DNA of 52,556 nucleotides from a bacterium (GTDB lineage Bacteria; Acidobacteriota; Blastocatellia; HR10): contig JBEPZV010000013.1 in the NCBI GenBank assembly GCA_041640655.1, forward strand, positions 1 to 52,556. Direction: 5' to 3'. Shown here in pieces: positions 1 to 9,074 of the stretch (position 1 is the stretch's first letter; each line of letters opens with the position of its first letter). The notes beneath the pieces were generated by a model, which saw only the letters and a program-made list of their open reading frames with translations, did not search any database and had not been told where the DNA came from. Both the position numbers and the translations under genes were made by a program.

Positions 1-68
1 AGGGGGTATGGGGGTTATCACTTTCGCCCACCTAACCCATTGGACTTTCAGAACTAAACCCCACAGCT
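1..68 (+). promoter_or_regulatory. CRISPR leader (3' part, truncated by window edge)
   Basis: 68 nt without a repeat before repeat 1, longer than any spacer (36-43 nt) and less GC-rich than coding DNA; the repeat ends in ATTGCGAC on the + strand, the usual 3' end. Confidence 0.7.
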
Positions 69-1020
69 GTCGGAAACCAGGACTCGCTTTAAAGAGGATT
101 GCGACAATCAGCCCTTCTATCTGCTTCATGACAGCGTTGAAGTCGGAAACCAGGACTCGCTTTAAAGAGGATTGCGACCCCACAGCCCCAGCAATATCCG
201 GAGGCCGTGGGTTCTGTCGGAAACCAGGACTCGCTTTAAAGAGGATTGCGACCCATTGACCCACCCAAGCCCGGCTGTCCACCATTGTGGGTGTCGGAAA
301 CCAGGACTCGCTTTAAAGAGGATTGCGACACTCCTCCATTATCTCATCGGCGATATCCGAGGCTTCATGTGTCGGAAACCAGGACTCGCTTTAAAGAGGA
401 TTGCGACGCAATTAAAAGCCAGATGTTACCGTCCTGGTCACTCCAGTCGGAAACCAGGACTCGCTTTAAAGAGGATTGCGACCAGATATTGGCGACCGTG
501 CGCCCAAGGTGCTCAAGACGTGTCGGAAACCAGGACTCGCTTTAAAGAGGATTGCGACCCTTGTCAATTCAATCACGCGTCAAATTCGTTTGGCATAAGC
601 CGTCGGAAACCAGGACTCGCTTTAAAGAGGATTGCGACTCTGAGGCTTGCCCTGCCTCACTTGCTCCAAGTATACAGTCGGAAACCAGGACTCGCTTTAA
701 AGAGGATTGCGACATCCCGAATTCTCTGCACATCTTCCCCAAAGCCCCGCCAAATGTCGGAAACCAGGACTCGCTTTAAAGAGGATTGCGACTCAAGGCA
801 TCCAGTATCACTCGGTTACTATCCACCCATGGTCGGAAACCAGGACTCGCTTTAAAGAGGATTGCGACACAAGAAACGGCTCACAGTTTTTGAACCAAGC
901 TGCCGCGAGTCGGAAACCAGGACTCGCTTTAAAGAGGATTGCGACCCGTACCACCATGAAATTCTCACTTCGTAGGTCATTGCGTCGGAAACCAGGACTC
1001 GCTTTAAAGAGGATTGCGAC
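69..1020 (+). CRISPR. CRISPR array, 13 identical 37-bp repeats GTCGGAAACCAGGACTCGCTTTAAAGAGGATTGCGAC and 12 spacers of 36-43 bp
   Basis: Repeats start at 69, 142, 216, 293, 371, 446, 522, 602, 677, 756, 832, 909 and 984; spacers are unique. Confidence 0.99.
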
Positions 1021-1025
1021 GGCCG

Positions 1026-1490
1026 TCACTCCTTCCGTCGCGTGAGCGCGCGGCGGCGGAGATCGTGAAGCTTCCAGTAGTAGAAGTACTTCGACGGAGG
1101 AGCGGTGCGGAAGCGGAGCCGATCGAGGGCTTGCAACTCTTCCAGCGTGGCGGCGCCGGAGAGTTCCGGATCGGCCAGAAATTCGTGAAAGGCGCGATAG
1201 GGGGAGGAGAAAGCGGGCTTGAGCTGACGAGCGGGCGTGCGGCGCGGTGTGCCGCGGCCGGTGAAGAGCCAGTCCAGGGAGATCCCGGCGCGGACCAGAG
1301 CCAGGTAGAAGTCAGCCGAGGGAAGGCCGCGGCGTTCGATATGACTGAGGCGTTGCTGCGACAGCCCCAGGCGCTCGGCGAAGGCTTTCTGCGAGAGGGG
1401 AGCGCGAGCGCGACGCAACCGCTCGCGGACGGCCTTCACCTCCGGCGTCTGCTTCCGACGACGTGTGCGGTTTTGTCGGCGCTTCGGCAT
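1026..1490 (-). CDS. XRE-family helix-turn-helix transcriptional regulator with unassigned C-terminal domain (154 aa)
   Basis: RLRRARAPLSQKAFAERLGLSQQRLSHIERRGLPS...GISLDWLFTG is a Cro/cI HTH signature; ATG at 1490 follows a TATACT -10 box. Confidence 0.88.
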   Translation of the reverse strand: MPKRRQNRTRRRKQTPEVKAVRERLRRARAPLSQKAFAERLGLSQQRLSHIERRGLPSADFYLALVRAGISLDWLFTGRGTPRRTPARQLKPAFSSPYRAFHEFLADPELSGAATLEELQALDRLRFRTAPPSKYFYYWKLHDLRRRALTRRKE

Positions 1491-1498
1491 GAGCTGAG

Positions 1499-1504
1499 AG
1501 TATA
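1499..1504 (-). promoter_or_regulatory. -10 box (TATACT) of the XRE gene, probably leaderless
   Basis: TATACT lies 8 nt upstream of the ATG; no Shine-Dalgarno. Confidence 0.55.
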
Positions 1505-1683
1505 CCCGATCGGCGGAGATTTGGGAAGTGGGAAGATTTTGTTCCGCCAGGTTAGGATCAAAAGGATATCGAGCGGCCGCTGGACCTGATGTGGTGTGCC
1601 GTTCAGAGCCGGACGCCGGTCTTCTCGGTTGCGCTACGCGGACTTCCTGTGGCAGGAGGGATCTCGCCCCGCTCGCTCCGGGC

Positions 1684-1712
1684 TTGACATCGAGGCGGAG
1701 GATGTGGAAAAT
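1684..1712 (+). promoter_or_regulatory. Sigma70-type promoter for the cysteine operon leader
   Basis: TTGACA (1684-1689), 17-nt spacer, GAAAAT (1707-1712). Confidence 0.65.
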
Positions 1713-1811
1713 TTCTCGCCTTGAAATGCGCGCGGCCGGCAAGGTGAGAGGGTTGTGAGGCAGACGCTGGGCATCAACCGGAAGGTGAGAACCGGAGGCG
1801 AGGACCGCCGG

Positions 1812-1883
1812 ATGGCCATGATGTGTTGTTGTTGTCGGACGACGGGAGGCTCTCCGGCGGTGGTGCAGACGCTCGTGAGCTAG
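1812..1883 (+). CDS. Poly-Cys attenuator leader peptide MAMMCCCCRTTGGSPAVVQTLVS (23 aa)
   Basis: ATG GCC ATG ATG TGT TGT TGT TGT ... TAG; GAGGA SD-like motif upstream; directly precedes a terminator and the cysteine synthase gene. Confidence 0.88.
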   Translation: MAMMCCCCRTTGGSPAVVQTLVS

Positions 1884-1907
1884 GCCGCGCGAAGCGACAT
1901 CGAGATC

Positions 1908-1948
1908 AAAAAAACCCACTGCCGGAGAGATCGGCGGTGGGTTTTTTT
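1908..1948 (+). terminator. Intrinsic terminator of the attenuator
   Basis: AAAAAAACCCACTGCCG-GAGAGAT-CGGCGGTGGGTTTTTTT: GC-rich stem with one G-U pair, then 7 T. Confidence 0.92.
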
Positions 1949-1974
1949 ATGGCCGGCGACGAGGCGAGGCGCGC

Positions 1975-2979
1975 ATGAAGGGCATTCGAGGGGCGTGCGC
2001 GGAAGGAGCGTGGGCGACCTTCGGGCCTCGCGCGAGGATGGTGCGCGCGTGGGAGCGACCGGTGGACCTGTTGCAGCTTGTCGGGCGGACGCCGCTTCTG
2101 CGGCTGCGGCGGATCGCGCGCGAATTCGAGGGGGTGGAGATCTACGCGAAGGCGGAGTGGTACAACCCGGGGGGATCGGTGAAGGATCGCGCGGGGTTGT
2201 GGATCATTCAAGACGCGGAGGCCGCGGGGCGACTGACGCCGGAGAAGATCATCCTCGACGCGACGTCGGGCAATACGGGCATCGCCTATGCGTGGATCGC
2301 GCGGGTGAAGGGGTATCGGGTGACGCTCGCCATTCCGGCCAATGTCACGCCCGAGCGGAAGCGGATTTTGCGGGCCTTGGGGGCGGAGTTGCGCTTCACC
2401 GATCCGCGCGAGGGGTCGGACGGGGCGATTCGCGAGGCGCGACGTCTGGCGGCGGAGCATCCGGAGCTCTACTTCTATGCCGATCAGTACAACAATCCGG
2501 CCAATTGGCGCGCGCACTATGAGACGACGGCGGTGGAGATCTTCGAGCAGACGGAGGGGCGGATCACGCATTTCGTGGCCGGGTTGGGCACCAGCGGCAC
2601 GTTCGTGGGCGTCGGGCGCCGCTTGCGCGAGCTCTGTCCGGAGATTCGGTTGATCTCGGTGCAGCCGGATGCGCCGTTTCATGGGATCGAGGGGCTGAAG
2701 CACATGCCGACGGCTCTGCGGCCGGGCATCTATGACGACGCGCTGGCGGACATGAATCTGGAGATCCCGACCGAGGAGGCCTACGCGATGGTGCGACGCC
2801 TGGCGCGCGAGGAGGGGCTGCTGGTGGGCGTCTCCTCGGGAGCGGCGTTGGCCGCAGTGCTGCGCATCGCGCGGACGATTCGTCGTGGTGTCATCGTCAC
2901 GATCTTCCCCGACGGTGGGGACAAGTACTTGAGTGAGCGCTTCTGGGAGGAAGGGGGGGATGATTCGACTCACGATTGA
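1975..2979 (+). CDS. cysM: PLP-dependent cysteine synthase (CysM-type; start may be 2038)
   Basis: NPGGSVKDR PLP-lysine motif, DATSGNTG, GLGTSGT, GVSSGA; operon context. Confidence 0.88.
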   Translation: MKGIRGACAEGAWATFGPRARMVRAWERPVDLLQLVGRTPLLRLRRIAREFEGVEIYAKAEWYNPGGSVKDRAGLWIIQDAEAAGRLTPEKIILDATSGNTGIAYAWIARVKGYRVTLAIPANVTPERKRILRALGAELRFTDPREGSDGAIREARRLAAEHPELYFYADQYNNPANWRAHYETTAVEIFEQTEGRITHFVAGLGTSGTFVGVGRRLRELCPEIRLISVQPDAPFHGIEGLKHMPTALRPGIYDDALADMNLEIPTEEAYAMVRRLAREEGLLVGVSSGAALAAVLRIARTIRRGVIVTIFPDGGDKYLSERFWEEGGDDSTHD

Positions 2980-3379
2980 ACAGCTTGAGGCGATCAAGCG
3001 GCATGGGGAGCGCGCCTATCCTGAGGAGGGGTGCGGCGTGTTGCTCGGACACGTGGAGGGGGAGACGAAGGTCGTCGAGGAGATTCGTCCGACGCCGAAC
3101 GCGCGGCAGGACTCACCGCACAATCGCTATGCCATCGCCCCGGAGGAACTGCTGCGGCTCGAACGCGAGGCGCGCGCGCGCGGTCGTGAAGTCCTCGGCT
3201 TCTTCCATTCGCATCCGGATGCGGAGGCGCGCCCCTCATCGCACGATCTCGAACACGCGTGGCCGTGGTATTCCTATCTGATCATCTCGGTGCGAGCCGC
3301 GGTCTCCGAGAGCGTGCATTCCTGGGTCTTGCGCGAGGATCGTTCGCGGTTCGATCAGGAGGAGATTCTCATCGGGTGA
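2960..3379 (+). CDS. mec: JAB/MPN+ (M67) metallopeptidase, Mec-like CysO-cysteine peptidase
   Basis: PEEGCG ... FHSHPDAEARPSSHD JAMM motif. Confidence 0.9.
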   Translation: MIRLTIEQLEAIKRHGERAYPEEGCGVLLGHVEGETKVVEEIRPTPNARQDSPHNRYAIAPEELLRLEREARARGREVLGFFHSHPDAEARPSSHDLEHAWPWYSYLIISVRAAVSESVHSWVLREDRSRFDQEEILIG

Positions 3380-3435
3380 TGCTTCAACTGCGGGGCTTCC
3401 CGCATCGGGGGGGCTCCGGGGGAAAGGAGGGAGCG

Positions 3436-4905
3436 ATGTCGGTCACGATCTCACTTCCGACGGCCTTGCGGCGATATGCCGCCGAGAGCGATACGCTTCA
3501 GGTCGAAGGGCGAACGGTGCGCGAAGCGCTCGCCCGGTTGGTCGAGCGATACCCCGATTTGCAGCACCATCTCTTCACCGAGGATGGGCGGTTGCGCCAT
3601 TTCGTCAACGTGTACGTCAATGATGAGGACGTGCGGTACCTGCAGGAGCTGGAGACGCCGGTGAAGGAGGGGGATGAGATCACCATCGTCCCCTCGGTCG
3701 CGGGGGGGCGGGCGTCGGGAGCATCGGATGGTGAAGGGCTGGCGGCGATCGCCGAGCGCGCCGAGCGCGTGCGGCTCAGCCCGGAGGAGATCCTGCGCTA
3801 CAGCCGACACCTCATCATGCCGGAGGTGACCATGGAGGGGCAGCGTCGGCTCAAGGCGGCGCGGGTGCTGATCATCGGCGCGGGCGGTCTGGGGTCGCCT
3901 CTGGCCCTCTACTTGGCCGCCGCGGGCGTGGGGCGCATCGGGATCGTGGATTTCGATGTGGTGGATTTCACGAACCTCCAGCGGCAGGTCCTCTACACCA
4001 CGCACGACGTCGGTCAGCCCAAGTTGCAGAAGGCCAAGGAGCGGCTCCAGGCGATCAATCCCCACATTGAGATCGAGACCTATGAGACGCGGCTCACCTC
4101 GGCGAACGCGCTCGAGATTCTGCGGGACTACGATGTGATCGTGGACGGCACGGATAATTTCCCGACGCGCTATTTGGTCAACGATGCGTGTGTGCTGCTT
4201 GGGAAGCCCAACGTCTATGGGAGCATCTTTCGCTTCGAGGGACAGGCATCGGTCTTCTACGCGCGGCAGGGGCCGTGTTACCGCTGCCTCTATCCGGAGC
4301 CGCCGCCGCCCGGGCTCGTCCCGAGCTGCGCCGAGGGGGGCGTGCTCGGCGTATTGCCTGGGATCATCGGCGCGATTCAGGCCAACGAGACGATCAAGCT
4401 GATTCTGGGGCAGGGCGAGCCGCTCATTGGGCGGCTCTTGCTGTTGGACGCCTGGCGGATGCAGATCCGCACGGTGAAGGTGCGCAAGGACCCACAGTGC
4501 CCGATCTGCGGTGAGCGGCCGACGATCCGCGAGTTGATTGACTACGAAGAGTTCTGCGGCGTGATGCCGGAGCCGGTGCTCGCCGAAGAGCTGGAGATCA
4601 CGCCGCGCGAGCTGAAGGCGCGACTCGATCGGGGGGAGCCGCTCTTCCTGCTCGACGTTCGCGAGCCGCACGAATGGCAGATCGCGCATCTGCCGGGCGC
4701 GACGCTCATCCCCATGAACCGCATCCCCGCGCGCTTGCACGAGCTGCCGACGACGGACGAGATCGTCGTCTATTGCAAGACGGGAGGGCGAAGCGCGCAG
4801 GTGCTGCGGTTCCTCTACAGTGCGGGCTTCCGGCGGATCAAGAACCTGAAGGGGGGGATTGATCGCTGGGCCGTGGAGGTGGATCCGAGCGTGCCGCGGT
4901 ACTGA
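3436..4905 (+). CDS. moeB: Fusion of ThiS/MoaD (CysO-like) sulfur carrier, MoeB/E1 adenylyltransferase and rhodanese (MoeZ-like)
   Basis: N-terminal beta-grasp domain ending ITIVPSVAGG; GAGGLG, CYRC, CAEGG, CPIC; rhodanese YCKTGGRS; AAGGAGG SD before 3436. Confidence 0.92.
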   Translation: MSVTISLPTALRRYAAESDTLQVEGRTVREALARLVERYPDLQHHLFTEDGRLRHFVNVYVNDEDVRYLQELETPVKEGDEITIVPSVAGGRASGASDGEGLAAIAERAERVRLSPEEILRYSRHLIMPEVTMEGQRRLKAARVLIIGAGGLGSPLALYLAAAGVGRIGIVDFDVVDFTNLQRQVLYTTHDVGQPKLQKAKERLQAINPHIEIETYETRLTSANALEILRDYDVIVDGTDNFPTRYLVNDACVLLGKPNVYGSIFRFEGQASVFYARQGPCYRCLYPEPPPPGLVPSCAEGGVLGVLPGIIGAIQANETIKLILGQGEPLIGRLLLLDAWRMQIRTVKVRKDPQCPICGERPTIRELIDYEEFCGVMPEPVLAEELEITPRELKARLDRGEPLFLLDVREPHEWQIAHLPGATLIPMNRIPARLHELPTTDEIVVYCKTGGRSAQVLRFLYSAGFRRIKNLKGGIDRWAVEVDPSVPRY

Positions 4906-4915
4906 GGAGGTGGTC

Positions 4916-5416
4916 ATGAGGGCGATTGACGAGGTCGTGGAGGCCAACGCGGCTTACGCCGCGCAATTCGCATGGGGGGACTTATCGGCGCCGCCCACAC
5001 GGCGGCTGATCGTGCTCGCGTGCATGGACGCGCGAATCCTCGTCTCGCAGATATTGGGGCTGAAGCCAGGTGAGGCGCACGTCCTGCGCAATGCCGGCGG
5101 CATCGTGACTGAGGACGTCTTGCGCTCGCTGCTCATCTCCCATTATCTGTTGGGGACGCGGGAGTTCATGATCATCGCCCACACCGACTGCGGCATGATG
5201 ACCTTCACCGATGACGATCTCTTTCGGCGTCTTCGGCACGAGACGGGGACGGCCGTCGTGGCCCCGGCGCGCTTTTTCGCCTTCCGCGATCTGGAGGAGA
5301 ACGTGCGGGAGCAAGTGCAGAAGGTGCGCTCGCATCCGTGGGTTCCTGCCGCGCTCCTGGTGCGCGGGTTCATCTACGATGTGAAGACCGGACGATTGCG
5401 CGAAGTCTCCGCATGA
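4916..5416 (+). CDS. Beta-class carbonic anhydrase (short clade-D type; possible COS hydrolase)
   Basis: ACMDAR, RNAGG, HTDCG zinc motifs; GFIYDVKTG; GAGGAGG SD. Confidence 0.92.
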   Translation: MRAIDEVVEANAAYAAQFAWGDLSAPPTRRLIVLACMDARILVSQILGLKPGEAHVLRNAGGIVTEDVLRSLLISHYLLGTREFMIIAHTDCGMMTFTDDDLFRRLRHETGTAVVAPARFFAFRDLEENVREQVQKVRSHPWVPAALLVRGFIYDVKTGRLREVSA

Positions 5417-5420
5417 GGGC

Positions 5421-5456
5421 GGTGGGAGGGGCGAGCTCGTGATCGCCCCTCCCGCT
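5421..5456. terminator. Stem-loop between convergent genes
   Basis: GGGAGGGGCGA (5424-5434) pairs with TCGCCCCTCCC (5443-5453); no strong U tract. Confidence 0.55.
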
Positions 5457-5468
5457 GATCTCCCCTTC

Positions 5469-8400
5469 TCAGAAGGAGAGCTTCAGGCCAAATTGGATGA
5501 TGCGCGGATCGCGCGCGCTGCTGACGGACCCGAAGCCCGCGACGCCCAGGGTCGCGCTCGGCGCCCCCAATTGAGTGTGATTGAAGGCGTTGAAGAATTC
5601 CGCCCGGAATTGCACGCGCACCTGCTCGGTCAGGGCGAAGTTCTTCATCAGGCTGATGTCCCAATTGTTGACGCCCGCGGCGCGGATGATGTTACGCCCG
5701 GCCGTCCCGAAGGTCGTGGTCGCCCGGCGGAAGGCATCCGTATTGAACCAGCGCGCGGGGGTACGTTGACCTTTCGGCAGACGCGGATTCGCGATCAGGT
5801 CAGGTCGCGTGGAGCCTCCGGCCGGGAATGGTCCGACCAGCAGCGTGTCTCCGGACTGGAAGACGGTGAAGGGCAGGCCGCTCCAGAAGGTCGTGATGCC
5901 GGAGAGTTGCCATCCGCCGAAGACGGCGCGCACGGCCGGATGGGCTTCCCGCAAGGTGGGGAGCTCCCAGATGTAGTTGATCGTCAGCACGTGCTGGCGC
6001 TGGAACGAGGAGGGCGCGCGCTCGGCGCGGATGTTGAGCGAGTCCTGCGGCGCATCCGAGCGATCCGTCGAAGCGGTGGTCATGTTCTTCCCCCAGGTGT
6101 AGACCCCGCCGATGGAGAAGCCGCGACTCATCCGCTTCTGGATGGACATCTGCAGCGAGTGGTAGCGCGAGATGCCCGTCGTCTGTCGCTCCTGGATCAG
6201 GGCGTATCCGAGATAGGGGCGCACGCGATTGATGACGCCGCCGGCCTGATTGGCGGCCAGGGGACGCGGCTGGTTGATGTTGATGAGGCGGAGCAGATTG
6301 TTGCCGCCGGAGCCCACGTAGCCGATCTCAAAGAGCGTCTGCGGGAAGAGCTCGCGCTGATAGCTCAGGTTCCACTGCTGCATGGTCGGCGCGCGGAAGG
6401 GGAAGCCCGTCGTGAGCAAGCTGATGGGCAGGATGGTCTCGCGCGTGACGCCGGCCGCCGGGTTGCTGAGCAGCGCATTGTCAATGGTCACACGGGTGTT
6501 CGCCTTGGGATTCACGAACCCGTTCTGCAGGACGATCCCCGTCAGCGAGCGATCGTAGTAGATGCCGTAGCCGCCGCGCAGAACGCTCTTTCCGCGTCCG
6601 GACGGATCCCAGGCGAAGCCGAAGCGCGGGCCGATGAGGTCGAAATTATTCTCCTGCACGCGTCGCCCGAAGGGGGAATTCTCTCCGGAGAAGATCATCC
6701 CGTTGAAGCGATCGCCGCTGCCGGGGATGATGAAGCCGCGCGCGTCCAGTTGCACCGCGCGCTCCGGGCGGTAGAGATCGGGCCGGAAGGTCTGCAGGAG
6801 ATTGTTCTTCTCCACCGGGTTGCCGAACATGGAGAACCGAACGCCGAAGTCGAGCGTGAGGTTCGGGCGCACTTTCCAGCTGTCTTGCGCGTAAAACTCG
6901 TAGGTGTTGTACCGGAGGTCCAGGTTCACATCCACCTGATCCTCCGTGTAGCTGGAGGCGAGGCCGAGCAGGAAGTCCGCGAAGGCGTTCCCCGTGAAGC
7001 GGCCATCGAAGGTGAACGAGCCATCCACAGGATTGCCGCCGGAATTCTCGAACTTCCGCTCCGTCGCGATGAACGCTCCCGTCTTGAACGTGTGCTTCCC
7101 CGTCGTGTAGGTGAAGTTGTAGGTGAACGAATGGCTCGGGTTCCCGTTCCGATATGGCCCGAAGAAGCTGATGCCGGCGAAGCCGGAGATGGAGATATTG
7201 GGCACCAGGTCGCGATTGCCCGGGAAGATCTCGGGGATTCTCAAGCCCAGTGCGCTGCGCTTGCCGCGCCCGATGATATTGCTGATGATCTGGTTGCGGG
7301 AGAAATCATAGGCGAACTCGCTCACGGCGCGCGTCCCGAGGACATGCGTGGCCGCCACTTTGAAATTGACAGCGGGCGTATCGGTGGCCGTCGTCGCGAC
7401 GTCCGGCAGCAGGATGTTGTTGAACAGTCCGCCCGGCTCGACGCGCGAGAAGATGTCTCGAATATAGCGGGCCCACACGCGGAAATTGGGGGTGAAGATA
7501 TGGTCCACGCGCCACAACTCCTGACGGAAGTTGACGGGCTGAGGCAGGGTGGGGCGGTAGAAGCGCGGATCGCCTTCGGCGGCCGCGTTGGGGAGCGGGA
7601 AGAGCCGCTCGACGATGATCCGGGCGTTCGGATCAATGCGATCCGGCGGGATGCTGTTGCCCGGGAACGGTTGTCCCGTCTGCGGATCTCGGATGGCGGG
7701 GAATCCCGAGAAGTCCCCCCGGCGCATGGCGGCCGTCGGCACGGTCGTGCGCGGCGTCGTGAACTCCCGAATGCGGCGGAACTCCTGCGAGAAGAAGAAG
7801 AAGGTCTTCTCTCGCTGCCTGTTGTACCCGAAGAGCGTGACCGGCCCGCCGATGTTCCATCCGAAATTGTTGTACCGCAGCGGCGGCTTCAGGCTCGTTC
7901 GTCCCACAATGGGCGGCGTGAAGCGAAACGGCTCGCGCGCGGTGATGACATCGTTGCGCAGGAAGTGATAGGCGCCGCCGTGAAACTCGCGCGTCCCCGA
8001 CTTGGTGATGATATTCACCACGCCCCCGGCGTTGCGGCCGAACTCGGCGCTGTAGACGTTGGTGAGGATGCGGAATTCGGCCACCGCATCCACGCTCGGG
8101 TAGTTGAAGAGTGTCAGGTTCGATCCCGTGTCCACGTTGCGCCCGCCGTCGATGAGCCAGTTGATGCCGCTTGTGCGACTCCCGCTGACGGAGATCGAGA
8201 TCACGCTGAGTCCGCCGAAGCCCACTTGACTCGGCAATGCCGAGGAGACGCCCGGCACGAGATAGGTCAACTGCACGAAATTTCGGTTATTCAACGGCAG
8301 CTCGGTCATCTGTCGCCCGGAGACCAAGCCGCTGATGGTGGGACTCTGTTGGACGAGGACTTCTTCCGCCGTGACGGTCACCGTCTCCTGGATCTCGCCC

Positions 8401-8726
8401 AGTTGCAACGTCACGTTGAGCGCGACGCGATCATTGACCGAGAGGATGATGTTCTCGCGCACGAAGCGCTTGAATCCCGGTGCTTCGACCGTGAGTTGGT
8501 AGCGGCCGACCGGCAGATAGGTCAGCACGTAGTTCCCCTCCTCATCCGTGCGCACGCTGCGGGAGAAGCCCGTGTCCATGTTCTTCACGACGACCTCAGC
8601 TCCCGGGACGACAGCCCCCGTCGGATCGCTCACGCGACCGACGATCGTCGCCGTCAGCTCCTGTGCGCCGACGATGAGCGTCGAGAGGCCGAGCATTGTG
8701 AGGATGGCGGAAAGTCTCCTCCTCAT
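5469..8726 (-). CDS. TonB-dependent receptor, Oar-like, with N-terminal carboxypeptidase-regulatory-like domain
   Basis: Signal peptide, GRVSDPTGAVVPGA, YSAEFGRNAGG, C-terminal QFRAEFFNAFNH...PRIIQFGLKLSF. Confidence 0.93.
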   Translation of the reverse strand: MRRRLSAILTMLGLSTLIVGAQELTATIVGRVSDPTGAVVPGAEVVVKNMDTGFSRSVRTDEEGNYVLTYLPVGRYQLTVEAPGFKRFVRENIILSVNDRVALNVTLQLGEIQETVTVTAEEVLVQQSPTISGLVSGRQMTELPLNNRNFVQLTYLVPGVSSALPSQVGFGGLSVISISVSGSRTSGINWLIDGGRNVDTGSNLTLFNYPSVDAVAEFRILTNVYSAEFGRNAGGVVNIITKSGTREFHGGAYHFLRNDVITAREPFRFTPPIVGRTSLKPPLRYNNFGWNIGGPVTLFGYNRQREKTFFFFSQEFRRIREFTTPRTTVPTAAMRRGDFSGFPAIRDPQTGQPFPGNSIPPDRIDPNARIIVERLFPLPNAAAEGDPRFYRPTLPQPVNFRQELWRVDHIFTPNFRVWARYIRDIFSRVEPGGLFNNILLPDVATTATDTPAVNFKVAATHVLGTRAVSEFAYDFSRNQIISNIIGRGKRSALGLRIPEIFPGNRDLVPNISISGFAGISFFGPYRNGNPSHSFTYNFTYTTGKHTFKTGAFIATERKFENSGGNPVDGSFTFDGRFTGNAFADFLLGLASSYTEDQVDVNLDLRYNTYEFYAQDSWKVRPNLTLDFGVRFSMFGNPVEKNNLLQTFRPDLYRPERAVQLDARGFIIPGSGDRFNGMIFSGENSPFGRRVQENNFDLIGPRFGFAWDPSGRGKSVLRGGYGIYYDRSLTGIVLQNGFVNPKANTRVTIDNALLSNPAAGVTRETILPISLLTTGFPFRAPTMQQWNLSYQRELFPQTLFEIGYVGSGGNNLLRLININQPRPLAANQAGGVINRVRPYLGYALIQERQTTGISRYHSLQMSIQKRMSRGFSIGGVYTWGKNMTTASTDRSDAPQDSLNIRAERAPSSFQRQHVLTINYIWELPTLREAHPAVRAVFGGWQLSGITTFWSGLPFTVFQSGDTLLVGPFPAGGSTRPDLIANPRLPKGQRTPARWFNTDAFRRATTTFGTAGRNIIRAAGVNNWDISLMKNFALTEQVRVQFRAEFFNAFNHTQLGAPSATLGVAGFGSVSSARDPRIIQFGLKLSF

Positions 8727-9074
8727 ACATCCCTCCTTAGCGTCGAGATTCACGCCCGCGAAGATTGTACTCAACTTGGCGGGGGAAGTCGAACGAGAAG
8801 ATTTGATGGGTTCGATAACGCTTCCTGATGGAGCGCGCGTTCGACCCGAGGCGGAGTATCGGTGCCGTGCTCGGGATCGAGGAGAGACGCGGCGATTCTC
8901 GGTTTCTCACCGGAATGCCGCGTGGGTGTCGGAGAGGCTCGCGCGCGGTCGCGAGGCTCGTCGCGCAGATCCGGTGATCCCTACTGCTCCAGCTCGCGAG
9001 GCCGACATCCGAAACGTGGTTTCGAGCGATCTGCGGGATAGGGCTTTTGGCGATCCCCCCTTCGGGTGGAGCTG

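Follow-up and report, generated by a model that had tools for sequence, protein, structure and literature searches.

A candidate leader-peptide transcription attenuator with four consecutive cysteine codons ahead of a cysM-like operon in an acidobacterial genome

INTRODUCTION

Classical leader-peptide attenuators, such as those of trp, his, leu, thr, ilv, and phe in Proteobacteria or of trp and ilvB in Actinobacteria, combine a short open reading frame (sORF) that is led by a Shine-Dalgarno (SD) sequence and carries tandem codons for the product of the pathway with exclusive 1:2, 2:3, and 3:4 helices and a Rho-independent terminator just before the first structural gene. Here, we describe a candidate of this kind that would sense cysteine, located upstream of a cysM-like operon on contig JBEPZV010000013.1 (assembly GCA_041640655.1) from a Blastocatellia-like member of the Acidobacteriota; the whole stretch analyzed, 52,556 nucleotides (nt) long, is called the window. 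The locus shares the features listed above with the classical systems but differs from them in the amino acid sensed and in its host, as well as in two aspects of its layout: segment 1 precedes the regulatory codons and shares bases with the sORF start, and segment 2 lies wholly within the sORF, well before the stop codon.

Cysteine-codon leaders themselves are not new. According to the accessible text of Canestrari et al. (2020; 10.1101/834739), leaderless poly-Cys sORFs of mycobacteria act on translation, the control exerted by Ms5788A consists of SD sequestration, with transcription termination tested and excluded, and attenuation for cysteine by an upstream ORF (uORF) is stated to have been undescribed until then. 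The window resembles these mycobacterial leaders in its consecutive Cys codons, in having an unannotated sORF before cysteine metabolism genes, and in ribosome pausing as the (here proposed) sensor, but it differs in having a 5′ untranslated region (UTR) of ∼92 nt, an SD sequence, and a strong terminator, with a promoter-like site ∼100 nt before the ATG. For Actinobacteria, the part of Seliverstov et al. (2005; PMC1262725) available to us reports short ORFs with runs of Cys codons ahead of cbs and cys operons, for which no terminators were found and Rho-dependent control was suggested; the window, in contrast, has both a terminator and an antiterminator. A preliminary description of our locus, made from the sequence alone, had noted that poly-Cys short-ORF control of cysteine genes is known in mycobacteria and actinobacteria.

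Similar in predicted mechanism are two leaders of cysS, again as given in the accessible portions of the sources: the uORFC-8-2 motif of Rhodobacterales, with two tandem Cys codons and a U run, for which ribosome-mediated attenuation was predicted (PMC8632094), and a leaderless 10-amino-acid (aa) leader with two Cys in Deinococcus deserti, also with predicted attenuation (PMC4007540). Both share with the window a uORF with Cys codons and predicted attenuation, and the U run of uORFC-8-2 fits an intrinsic terminator. They differ from it in preceding a tRNA synthetase gene, in carrying two Cys codons rather than four, and in belonging to other phyla; no sequence relation to the window was seen, and neither the window nor 12 related loci matched an Rfam family.

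The statement of the preliminary description that no such attenuator had been described was therefore somewhat too broad with respect to these cysS leaders. In the full-text literature (few subscription journals, supplements outside), we came across no account of a leader with a Cys-cluster sORF and a terminator, whether ahead of cysM/cysO operons or anywhere in Acidobacteriota, Gemmatimonadota, or Chloroflexota. The accessible text of PMC2965389 indicates that almost no predicted attenuator of Acidobacteria had an assigned function at the time, and that of PMC13236596, PMC2965389, and PMC4833913 added nothing on cysteine terminators. As far as these sources go, what is already known is that Cys-codon leaders with terminators are predicted for cysS and that a translational poly-Cys version is proven in mycobacteria. 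The mechanism proposed here is thus textbook, and its novelty, which we consider moderate, lies in the cysteine biosynthesis operon and in the phyla.

RESULTS

A Cys-codon sORF and a strong terminator precede cysM

The leader occupies the plus strand of what is most likely a divergent intergenic region (positions 1491 to 1974). It begins with a σ70-like promoter, TTGACA-17-GAAAAT (1684 to 1712), which the preliminary description had already noted; it matches at 10 of 12 positions and is the top plus-strand match within positions 1 to 8000, where 3 promoter-like sites were found versus 1.3 expected. Transcription would start near 1719, leaving a 5′ UTR of ∼92 nt ahead of the sORF. Two SD-like sequences, GGAGG (1794 to 1798) and GAGGA (1800 to 1804), presumably recruit the ribosome, with GAGG located 8 nt 5′ of the start codon. 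The sORF runs from the ATG at 1812 to the TAG at 1881 to 1883 and comprises 23 sense codons (MAMMCCCCRTTGGSPAVVQTLVS), among which four consecutive TGT codons (1824 to 1835) form the proposed sensing site. This is the single run of four Cys codons in the whole window across all six frames. Both the sORF and its Cys codons agree in sequence and translation with the preliminary description, which was mistaken in one detail: the frame, which stays open from a GTG at 1755, is not absent from the mechanical ORF list but appears there as 1755 to 1883. A protein collection searched with this 42-aa frame gave no homologue, which says little because small ORFs are rarely called. Further upstream, a 10-codon ORF (MRAAGKVRGL, 1726 to 1758) starts ∼7 nt past the predicted transcription start, and its stop codon, TGA, shares bases with the GTG at 1755 (GTGA), at which the longer form of the Cys sORF opens in frame; the arrangement could reflect termination-reinitiation coupling or chance.

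Between the sORF and cysM lies a terminator hairpin (1912 to 1944) with a stem of 14, 8 G-C pairs, a T7 run ending at 1948, and an A run before it. It is the strongest of 5 sites obtained in a strict terminator scan of both strands of the entire 52.5-kb window. Only 26 nt separate its last T from the cysM ATG at 1975, so that a cysteine synthase gene indeed starts just past the T run, as described earlier. Given that the scan of positions 1 to 8000 detected no promoter between terminator and cysM, and that the gap is too short for a separate one, cysM must presumably be transcribed through the terminator. Another terminator scan that covered the leader did not list the hairpin, probably because the extension of the stem by the A and T runs uses up the T tail. 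We also considered a bidirectional terminator, which was rejected: the minus-strand scan did not pick up the hairpin, probably because an A-C mismatch replaces its G-U pair on that strand, and there is no convergent gene. An Rfam search of positions 1 to 6000 (E values up to 10) gave no match to the leader, the three hits elsewhere or on the other strand being at chance level.

Competing helices and proposed mechanism

The leader contains four segments on the plus strand that combine into three mutually exclusive helices. Segment 1 (1804 to 1812), the 5′ strand of the putative anti-antiterminator, overlaps the SD region and the start codon and pairs with positions 1853 to 1861 of segment 2 (helix 1:2; 9 bp, −15.7 kcal/mol on its own). 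Segment 2 (1850 to 1863) is located within the sORF, beginning 15 nt beyond the last Cys codon, which ends at 1835, and it can alternatively pair with positions 1916 to 1929 of segment 3 (1914 to 1929) to give the antiterminator (helix 2:3; 14 bp with one G-U pair, G1859-U1920, −26.5 kcal/mol on its own). Positions 1914 to 1924 of segment 3 can instead pair with segment 4 (1932 to 1942), which, together with the T7 run at 1942 to 1948, forms the intrinsic terminator (helix 3:4; 11 bp with one G-U pair, U1920-G1936, −21.4 kcal/mol on its own). All of these coordinates, including the distance of segment 2 from the Cys codons, are as first described.

The antiterminator is the best-supported helix: none of 300 dinucleotide shuffles of its upstream part yielded an equally good 2:3 duplex (z = −4.3). 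The minimum free energy (MFE) structure of positions 1790 to 1950 consists of helix 1:2 plus the terminator, at −73.1 kcal/mol, versus a shuffle mean of −57.7 kcal/mol (standard deviation, 3.9; z = −3.9), with 1 of 200 shuffles folding as well. When the RNA is cut at 1931, so that segment 4 is missing, it adopts helix 2:3 whether or not a ribosome mask is applied. For the full-length leader without a ribosome, the terminator state (−73.1 kcal/mol) is 11.5 kcal/mol better than the forced antiterminator (−61.6 kcal/mol), and it is still favored under a ribosome mask over 1809 to 1838 (−56.1 versus −47.3 kcal/mol). Since the terminator state is favored even under the mask, antitermination must be kinetic, as in known attenuators.

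We propose, with a probability of roughly 0.75, that expression of the cysM-mec-cysO/moeZ operon is gated by this leader, acting as a leader-peptide transcription attenuator in which the ribosome senses the supply of charged tRNA-Cys. The transcription start, the translation of the sORF, ribosome stalling, the kinetic order of folding, and the response to cysteine are all predicted from the sequence here. Transcription from the promoter at 1684 to 1712 would begin near 1719, and a ribosome would initiate at the ATG at 1812 with the help of the SD sequence. With ample cysteine, it would pass the four UGU codons and reach the stop codon at 1881 to 1883, and segments 1 and 2 would pair behind it before segment 3 emerges, hiding the sORF start as well; segment 3 would then pair with segment 4, and RNA polymerase would terminate at the U run (1942 to 1948). 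When Cys-tRNA is scarce, the ribosome would wait on 1824 to 1835 with a footprint that covers or sterically blocks segment 1 and ends short of segment 2, which would capture segment 3 as soon as it is made, so that no terminator forms and the operon is transcribed. If the sORF is not translated, helix 1:2 would form, making termination the default. The earlier reading of the leader as a trp-type Cys attenuator is supported to the extent that all of its sequence-level features are present, are correctly placed, and recur in relatives, while its function is predicted from them.

Cys-cluster sORFs and terminators recur upstream of related cysM genes

We collected related loci from genome contigs, retrieved with an alignment of 36 CysM proteins, and analyzed the best 80 of at least 601 matches. 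Their CysM identities range from 48 to 68%, with relatives of 80 to 96% identity outside the set. Runs of Cys codons were counted within 400 nt upstream of cysM and compared to 2,348 control blocks of 400 nt from the related loci. On the plus strand, 11 of 80 loci had a run of at least three Cys codons in this interval, against 2 of 80 on the minus strand, 49 of the control blocks (∼2%), and a shuffle mean of 0.84 (Fisher P = 2e-6); for runs of at least four, the corresponding figures were 4 of 80, 1 of 80, 2 of 2,348, and 0.015 (P = 2e-5). Two of the runs of at least three were rejected as false positives, one lying out of frame inside the cysM N terminus (L005; loci are numbered with the prefix L) and the other lacking a start or stop codon (L014). 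A separate criterion, a complete sORF of at most 70 codons with start and stop and at least three Cys within six codons, also identified 11 of the 80 loci. The preliminary description had pointed to cysM homologues as the place to look for further poly-Cys sORFs, and their frequency there is far above background. What the 11 related sORFs have in common is the Cys cluster alone; they differ in length and in the rest of their sequence.

In 10 of the 11 sORF loci, which carry labels of Acidobacteriota, Gemmatimonadota, or Chloroflexota, the interval from sORF to cysM contains a hairpin with a T-rich tail, although L072 has a weak T tail and L018 and L026 fold into complex structures; the exception without a hairpin is L078, from Pseudobdellovibrionaceae. 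With the strict terminator scan, sites were found in 5 of 11 sORF loci versus 4 of 68 other loci, a comparison made without L005 because of its short flank, and in 107 of 3,168 control blocks. The 12 related loci scanned with Rfam contained only two tRNAs that reach the gathering score. Two further loci may be degenerate or variant leaders below the thresholds of our scans: L045 (1 to 175), with a C-T-C sORF (MSSTLHGIGCTCS...) and a strong terminator just ahead of cysM, and L058 (3390 to 3470), whose Cys-rich frame (ACKCCNVCG) lacks a canonical start and whose T-rich tail resembles those of L018 and L026.

In the window and the 10 hairpin loci, we compared the segment past the Cys codons with the 5′ arm of the terminator, using 300 shuffles for each. 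The combined Fisher P value of this antiterminator test is 4e-6. The number of shuffles at least as good as the natural sequence was 0 in the window and in L069 (Acidobacteriota), 4 in L008 (Vicinamibacterales), 5 in L077 (Thermoanaerobaculia), 13 in both L016 (Acidobacteria) and L051 (Pyrinomonadaceae), 18 in L063 (Gemmatimonadetes), 31 in L074 (Gemmatimonadales), 142 in L018 (Anaerolineaceae), 203 in L072 (Vicinamibacteria), and 220 in L026 (Anaerolineae). Segment 2 lies inside the sORF and starts 14 to 24 nt past the last Cys codon in the window, L069, L077, L016, and L008, and the window, L069, and L077 have a CCGGCGG/CCGCCGG core in common. When the window is compared with L069, this core is unchanged, whereas the outer portions of segments 2, 3, and 4 vary in concert. 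In the leader alignments, RNAalifold recovered the terminator alone, with 2 pairs changed on both sides, and was uninformative.

The two Anaerolineae leaders (L018, 3203 to 3406; L026, 3204 to 3399) can be aligned at 73% identity despite G+C contents of 44% and 61%. In both, the poly-Cys codons pair with a conserved complementary stretch past the stop codon, followed by a large hairpin with two T runs.

Leaders also differ in how the sORF starts. As judged by eye, the sORF begins 6 to 10 nt past a TTGACA-17-(−10) promoter in L069, L072, L016, L008, and L051, so that most acidobacterial relatives look leaderless, resembling the mycobacterial sORFs in this respect; the window copy and the Anaerolineae copies have a 5′ UTR and an SD sequence. 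The earlier characterization of an SD-led acidobacterial attenuator therefore applies to the window copy but not to most of its acidobacterial relatives.

The Cys codons of the leaders are biased toward TGT, with a TGT:TGC ratio of 34:18 versus 5:22 in the adjacent cysM genes (P = 1e-4); the long ORFs of the window have a ratio of 21:72. The only tRNA-Cys anticodon seen was GCA, in a single case in L008, where tRNA-Cys(GCA) (1847 to 1920), preceded by tRNA-Gly, lies ∼100 nt upstream of the poly-Cys sORF (2028 to 2117). TGT would thus be read by wobble, which may sharpen the pause.

The downstream operon and its divergent neighbor

The first structural gene (1975 to 2979, plus strand, as are those following it) encodes a cysM-like, pyridoxal phosphate-dependent cysteine synthase (PALP, 1.4e-72) preceded by a GAGG SD sequence at 1966 to 1969. 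Its product scores 367 bits against the TIGR01138 cysM model, below the cutoff of 394, although cysM models are its best matches; its relatives are named cysteine synthase, and the best named CysM relatives are from Blastocatellia. It is followed by genes identified from domain matches as a Mec-like, desampylase-like JAB/MPN metalloprotease (2933 to 3379) and as a CysO-like ThiS/SAMP domain fused to MoeZ (ThiF plus rhodanese; 3436 to 4905), the latter probably starting at M60 of ORF 3259 to 4905. A β-carbonic anhydrase-like gene (4859 to 5416) is possibly the last of the operon; such a gene follows likewise in L019 and L024. The PALP/cysM-like, JAB, ThiS, ThiF, and rhodanese domains identify a cysteine synthesis gene set, which we take to correspond to the CysO-thiocarboxylate route of Mycobacterium tuberculosis (CysM, CysO, Mec, and MoeZ).

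In the fusion protein, the ThiS/SAMP carrier ends in IVPSVAGG, with the GG at approximately residue 150 of ORF 3259 to 4905, and is joined in frame to MoeZ, with no intervening stop codon, by a linker of ∼20 aa. The same in-frame fusion is found in 26 of 43 related loci in which both domains are adjacent. The neighboring JAB protease may free the carrier by cleavage after the GG. Directly after the operon, an ORF of 1,129 aa (5439 to 8828) showed no Pfam or NCBIfam match at the thresholds used.

Divergently from the leader, an HTH_3 gene is encoded on the minus strand, probably at 1026 to 1490, as supported by its helix-turn-helix (HTH) domain and a promoter-like site at 1527 to 1499 (TTCCCA-17-TATACT). 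A longer minus-strand ORF that overlaps the leader (1026 to 1919) was rejected, since its HTH lies at residues 173 to 211 and the promoter and ATG at 1490 fit a 154-aa gene. This ATG sits 8 nt past the promoter-like site, so that the gene looks leaderless, suggesting that the organism uses leaderless mRNAs.

DISCUSSION

Several observations weigh against the attenuator as proposed, the first of which concern how termination is secured when cysteine is plentiful, its least-supported point. Of the three-helix layout given in the preliminary description, helix 1:2 is present but not clearly beyond chance, its duplex being matched by 21 of 300 shuffles (z = −1.5), and in a test of seven cases it was significant in L077 alone (2 of 300). 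Without a ribosome on the nascent RNA, 2:3 is thermodynamically stronger than 1:2. Moreover, segment 2 ends 18 nt 5′ of the stop codon, so that a terminating ribosome does not cover it, and termination would need the weakly supported helix 1:2 together with kinetics. Other points concern the relatives. Three loci (L018, L026, and L072) do not pass the antiterminator test, and two more (L063 and L074) give a weak result; masked folding of the two Anaerolineae leaders found no antiterminator; and MAFFT alignments of seven, four, and three leaders were too divergent and too few for covariation. A Cys-cluster sORF is lacking in 69 of the 80 loci, including L020 and L023, two of the three Pyrinomonadaceae loci, which are the closest class-level relatives among the 80. 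In five sORF loci (L008, L016, L018, L026, and L078), cysM has no JAB or ThiS genes beside it. Finally, the proposal does not account for the ∼92-nt 5′ UTR of the window copy.

Some of these points would fit a locus that does not sense amino acids at all, in which the hairpin acts as a constitutive partial terminator, serves to stabilize the RNA, or ends a small leader transcript, and the Cys run is due to chance or remains untranslated. The weakness of helix 1:2, the absence of the sORF from most relatives, and the presence of a terminator upstream of cysM in four loci without a Cys sORF are in line with this. However, a run of four Cys is found in only ∼0.1% of 400-nt blocks and once in the window, where it falls in an ORF with an SD sequence and an ATG directly before a cysteine operon; the 2:3 complementarity exceeds chance, and Cys sORFs and terminators co-occur in relatives. 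We therefore regard this explanation as unlikely.

Control of the mycobacterial type, either alone or on top of termination, would have the poly-Cys tract pair with the ribosome-binding region of cysM until a stalled ribosome frees it. Such translational attenuation is proven for Ms5788A of Mycobacterium smegmatis, as stated in the accessible text of 10.1101/834739, and in the window a duplex of −26.6 kcal/mol can form between the start and Cys tract (1815 to 1845) and the cysM 5′ UTR, SD, and start (1950 to 1985). Its significance is borderline, however, as 15 of 300 shuffles were as good under a lenient mononucleotide model, and its strongest run of pairs (1830 to 1839 with 1953 to 1962) stops before the proximal SD at 1966 to 1969. 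In the leader MFE structures, the Cys tract pairs locally, and, unlike the mycobacterial case, a strong intrinsic terminator intervenes between it and cysM, all of which makes this mode of control quite improbable here. We also considered, and rejected, a duplex between the 3′ portion of the sORF and the cysM SD, as 228 of 300 shuffles were as good. A functional Cys-rich micropeptide (e.g., metal- or redox-related) with its own terminator, cysM being controlled separately, is very unlikely: although Cys-rich small proteins exist and the sORF has an SD sequence and is followed by a terminator, the Cys cluster alone recurs in the 11 related sORFs, a search for homologues of the 42-aa frame gave none, albeit in a collection with few small ORFs called, and the 26-nt gap before cysM contained no promoter-like site in our scan.

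Beyond the transcription attenuator proposed for the window, we lean, if only slightly, toward a broader interpretation, namely, that it is one member of a multiphylum class of poly-Cys leader-peptide transcription attenuators on cysM/CysO-type operons, both leaderless and SD-led, which is distributed over Acidobacteriota, Gemmatimonadota, and Chloroflexota, is tuned by a preference for wobble-read UGU, and may represent the missing classical cysteine attenuator. The locus would take the place of a terminator-based attenuator of cysteine biosynthesis that has been missing, with candidates in several little-studied phyla, next to the only proven Cys leader, which, according to the mycobacterial work in the form accessible to us, operates on translation. 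In practical terms, it points genome annotation to an unannotated sORF of probable regulatory function and offers a compact part that would respond to cysteine. If the proposal is true, one sensing principle would have been realized several times over, leaderless or SD-led and read out by termination or translation, and the leader, as a terminator-based Cys attenuator on the CysO/CysM thiocarboxylate pathway, would give initial access to the control of sulfur and cysteine metabolism in Acidobacteriota and neighboring soil phyla.

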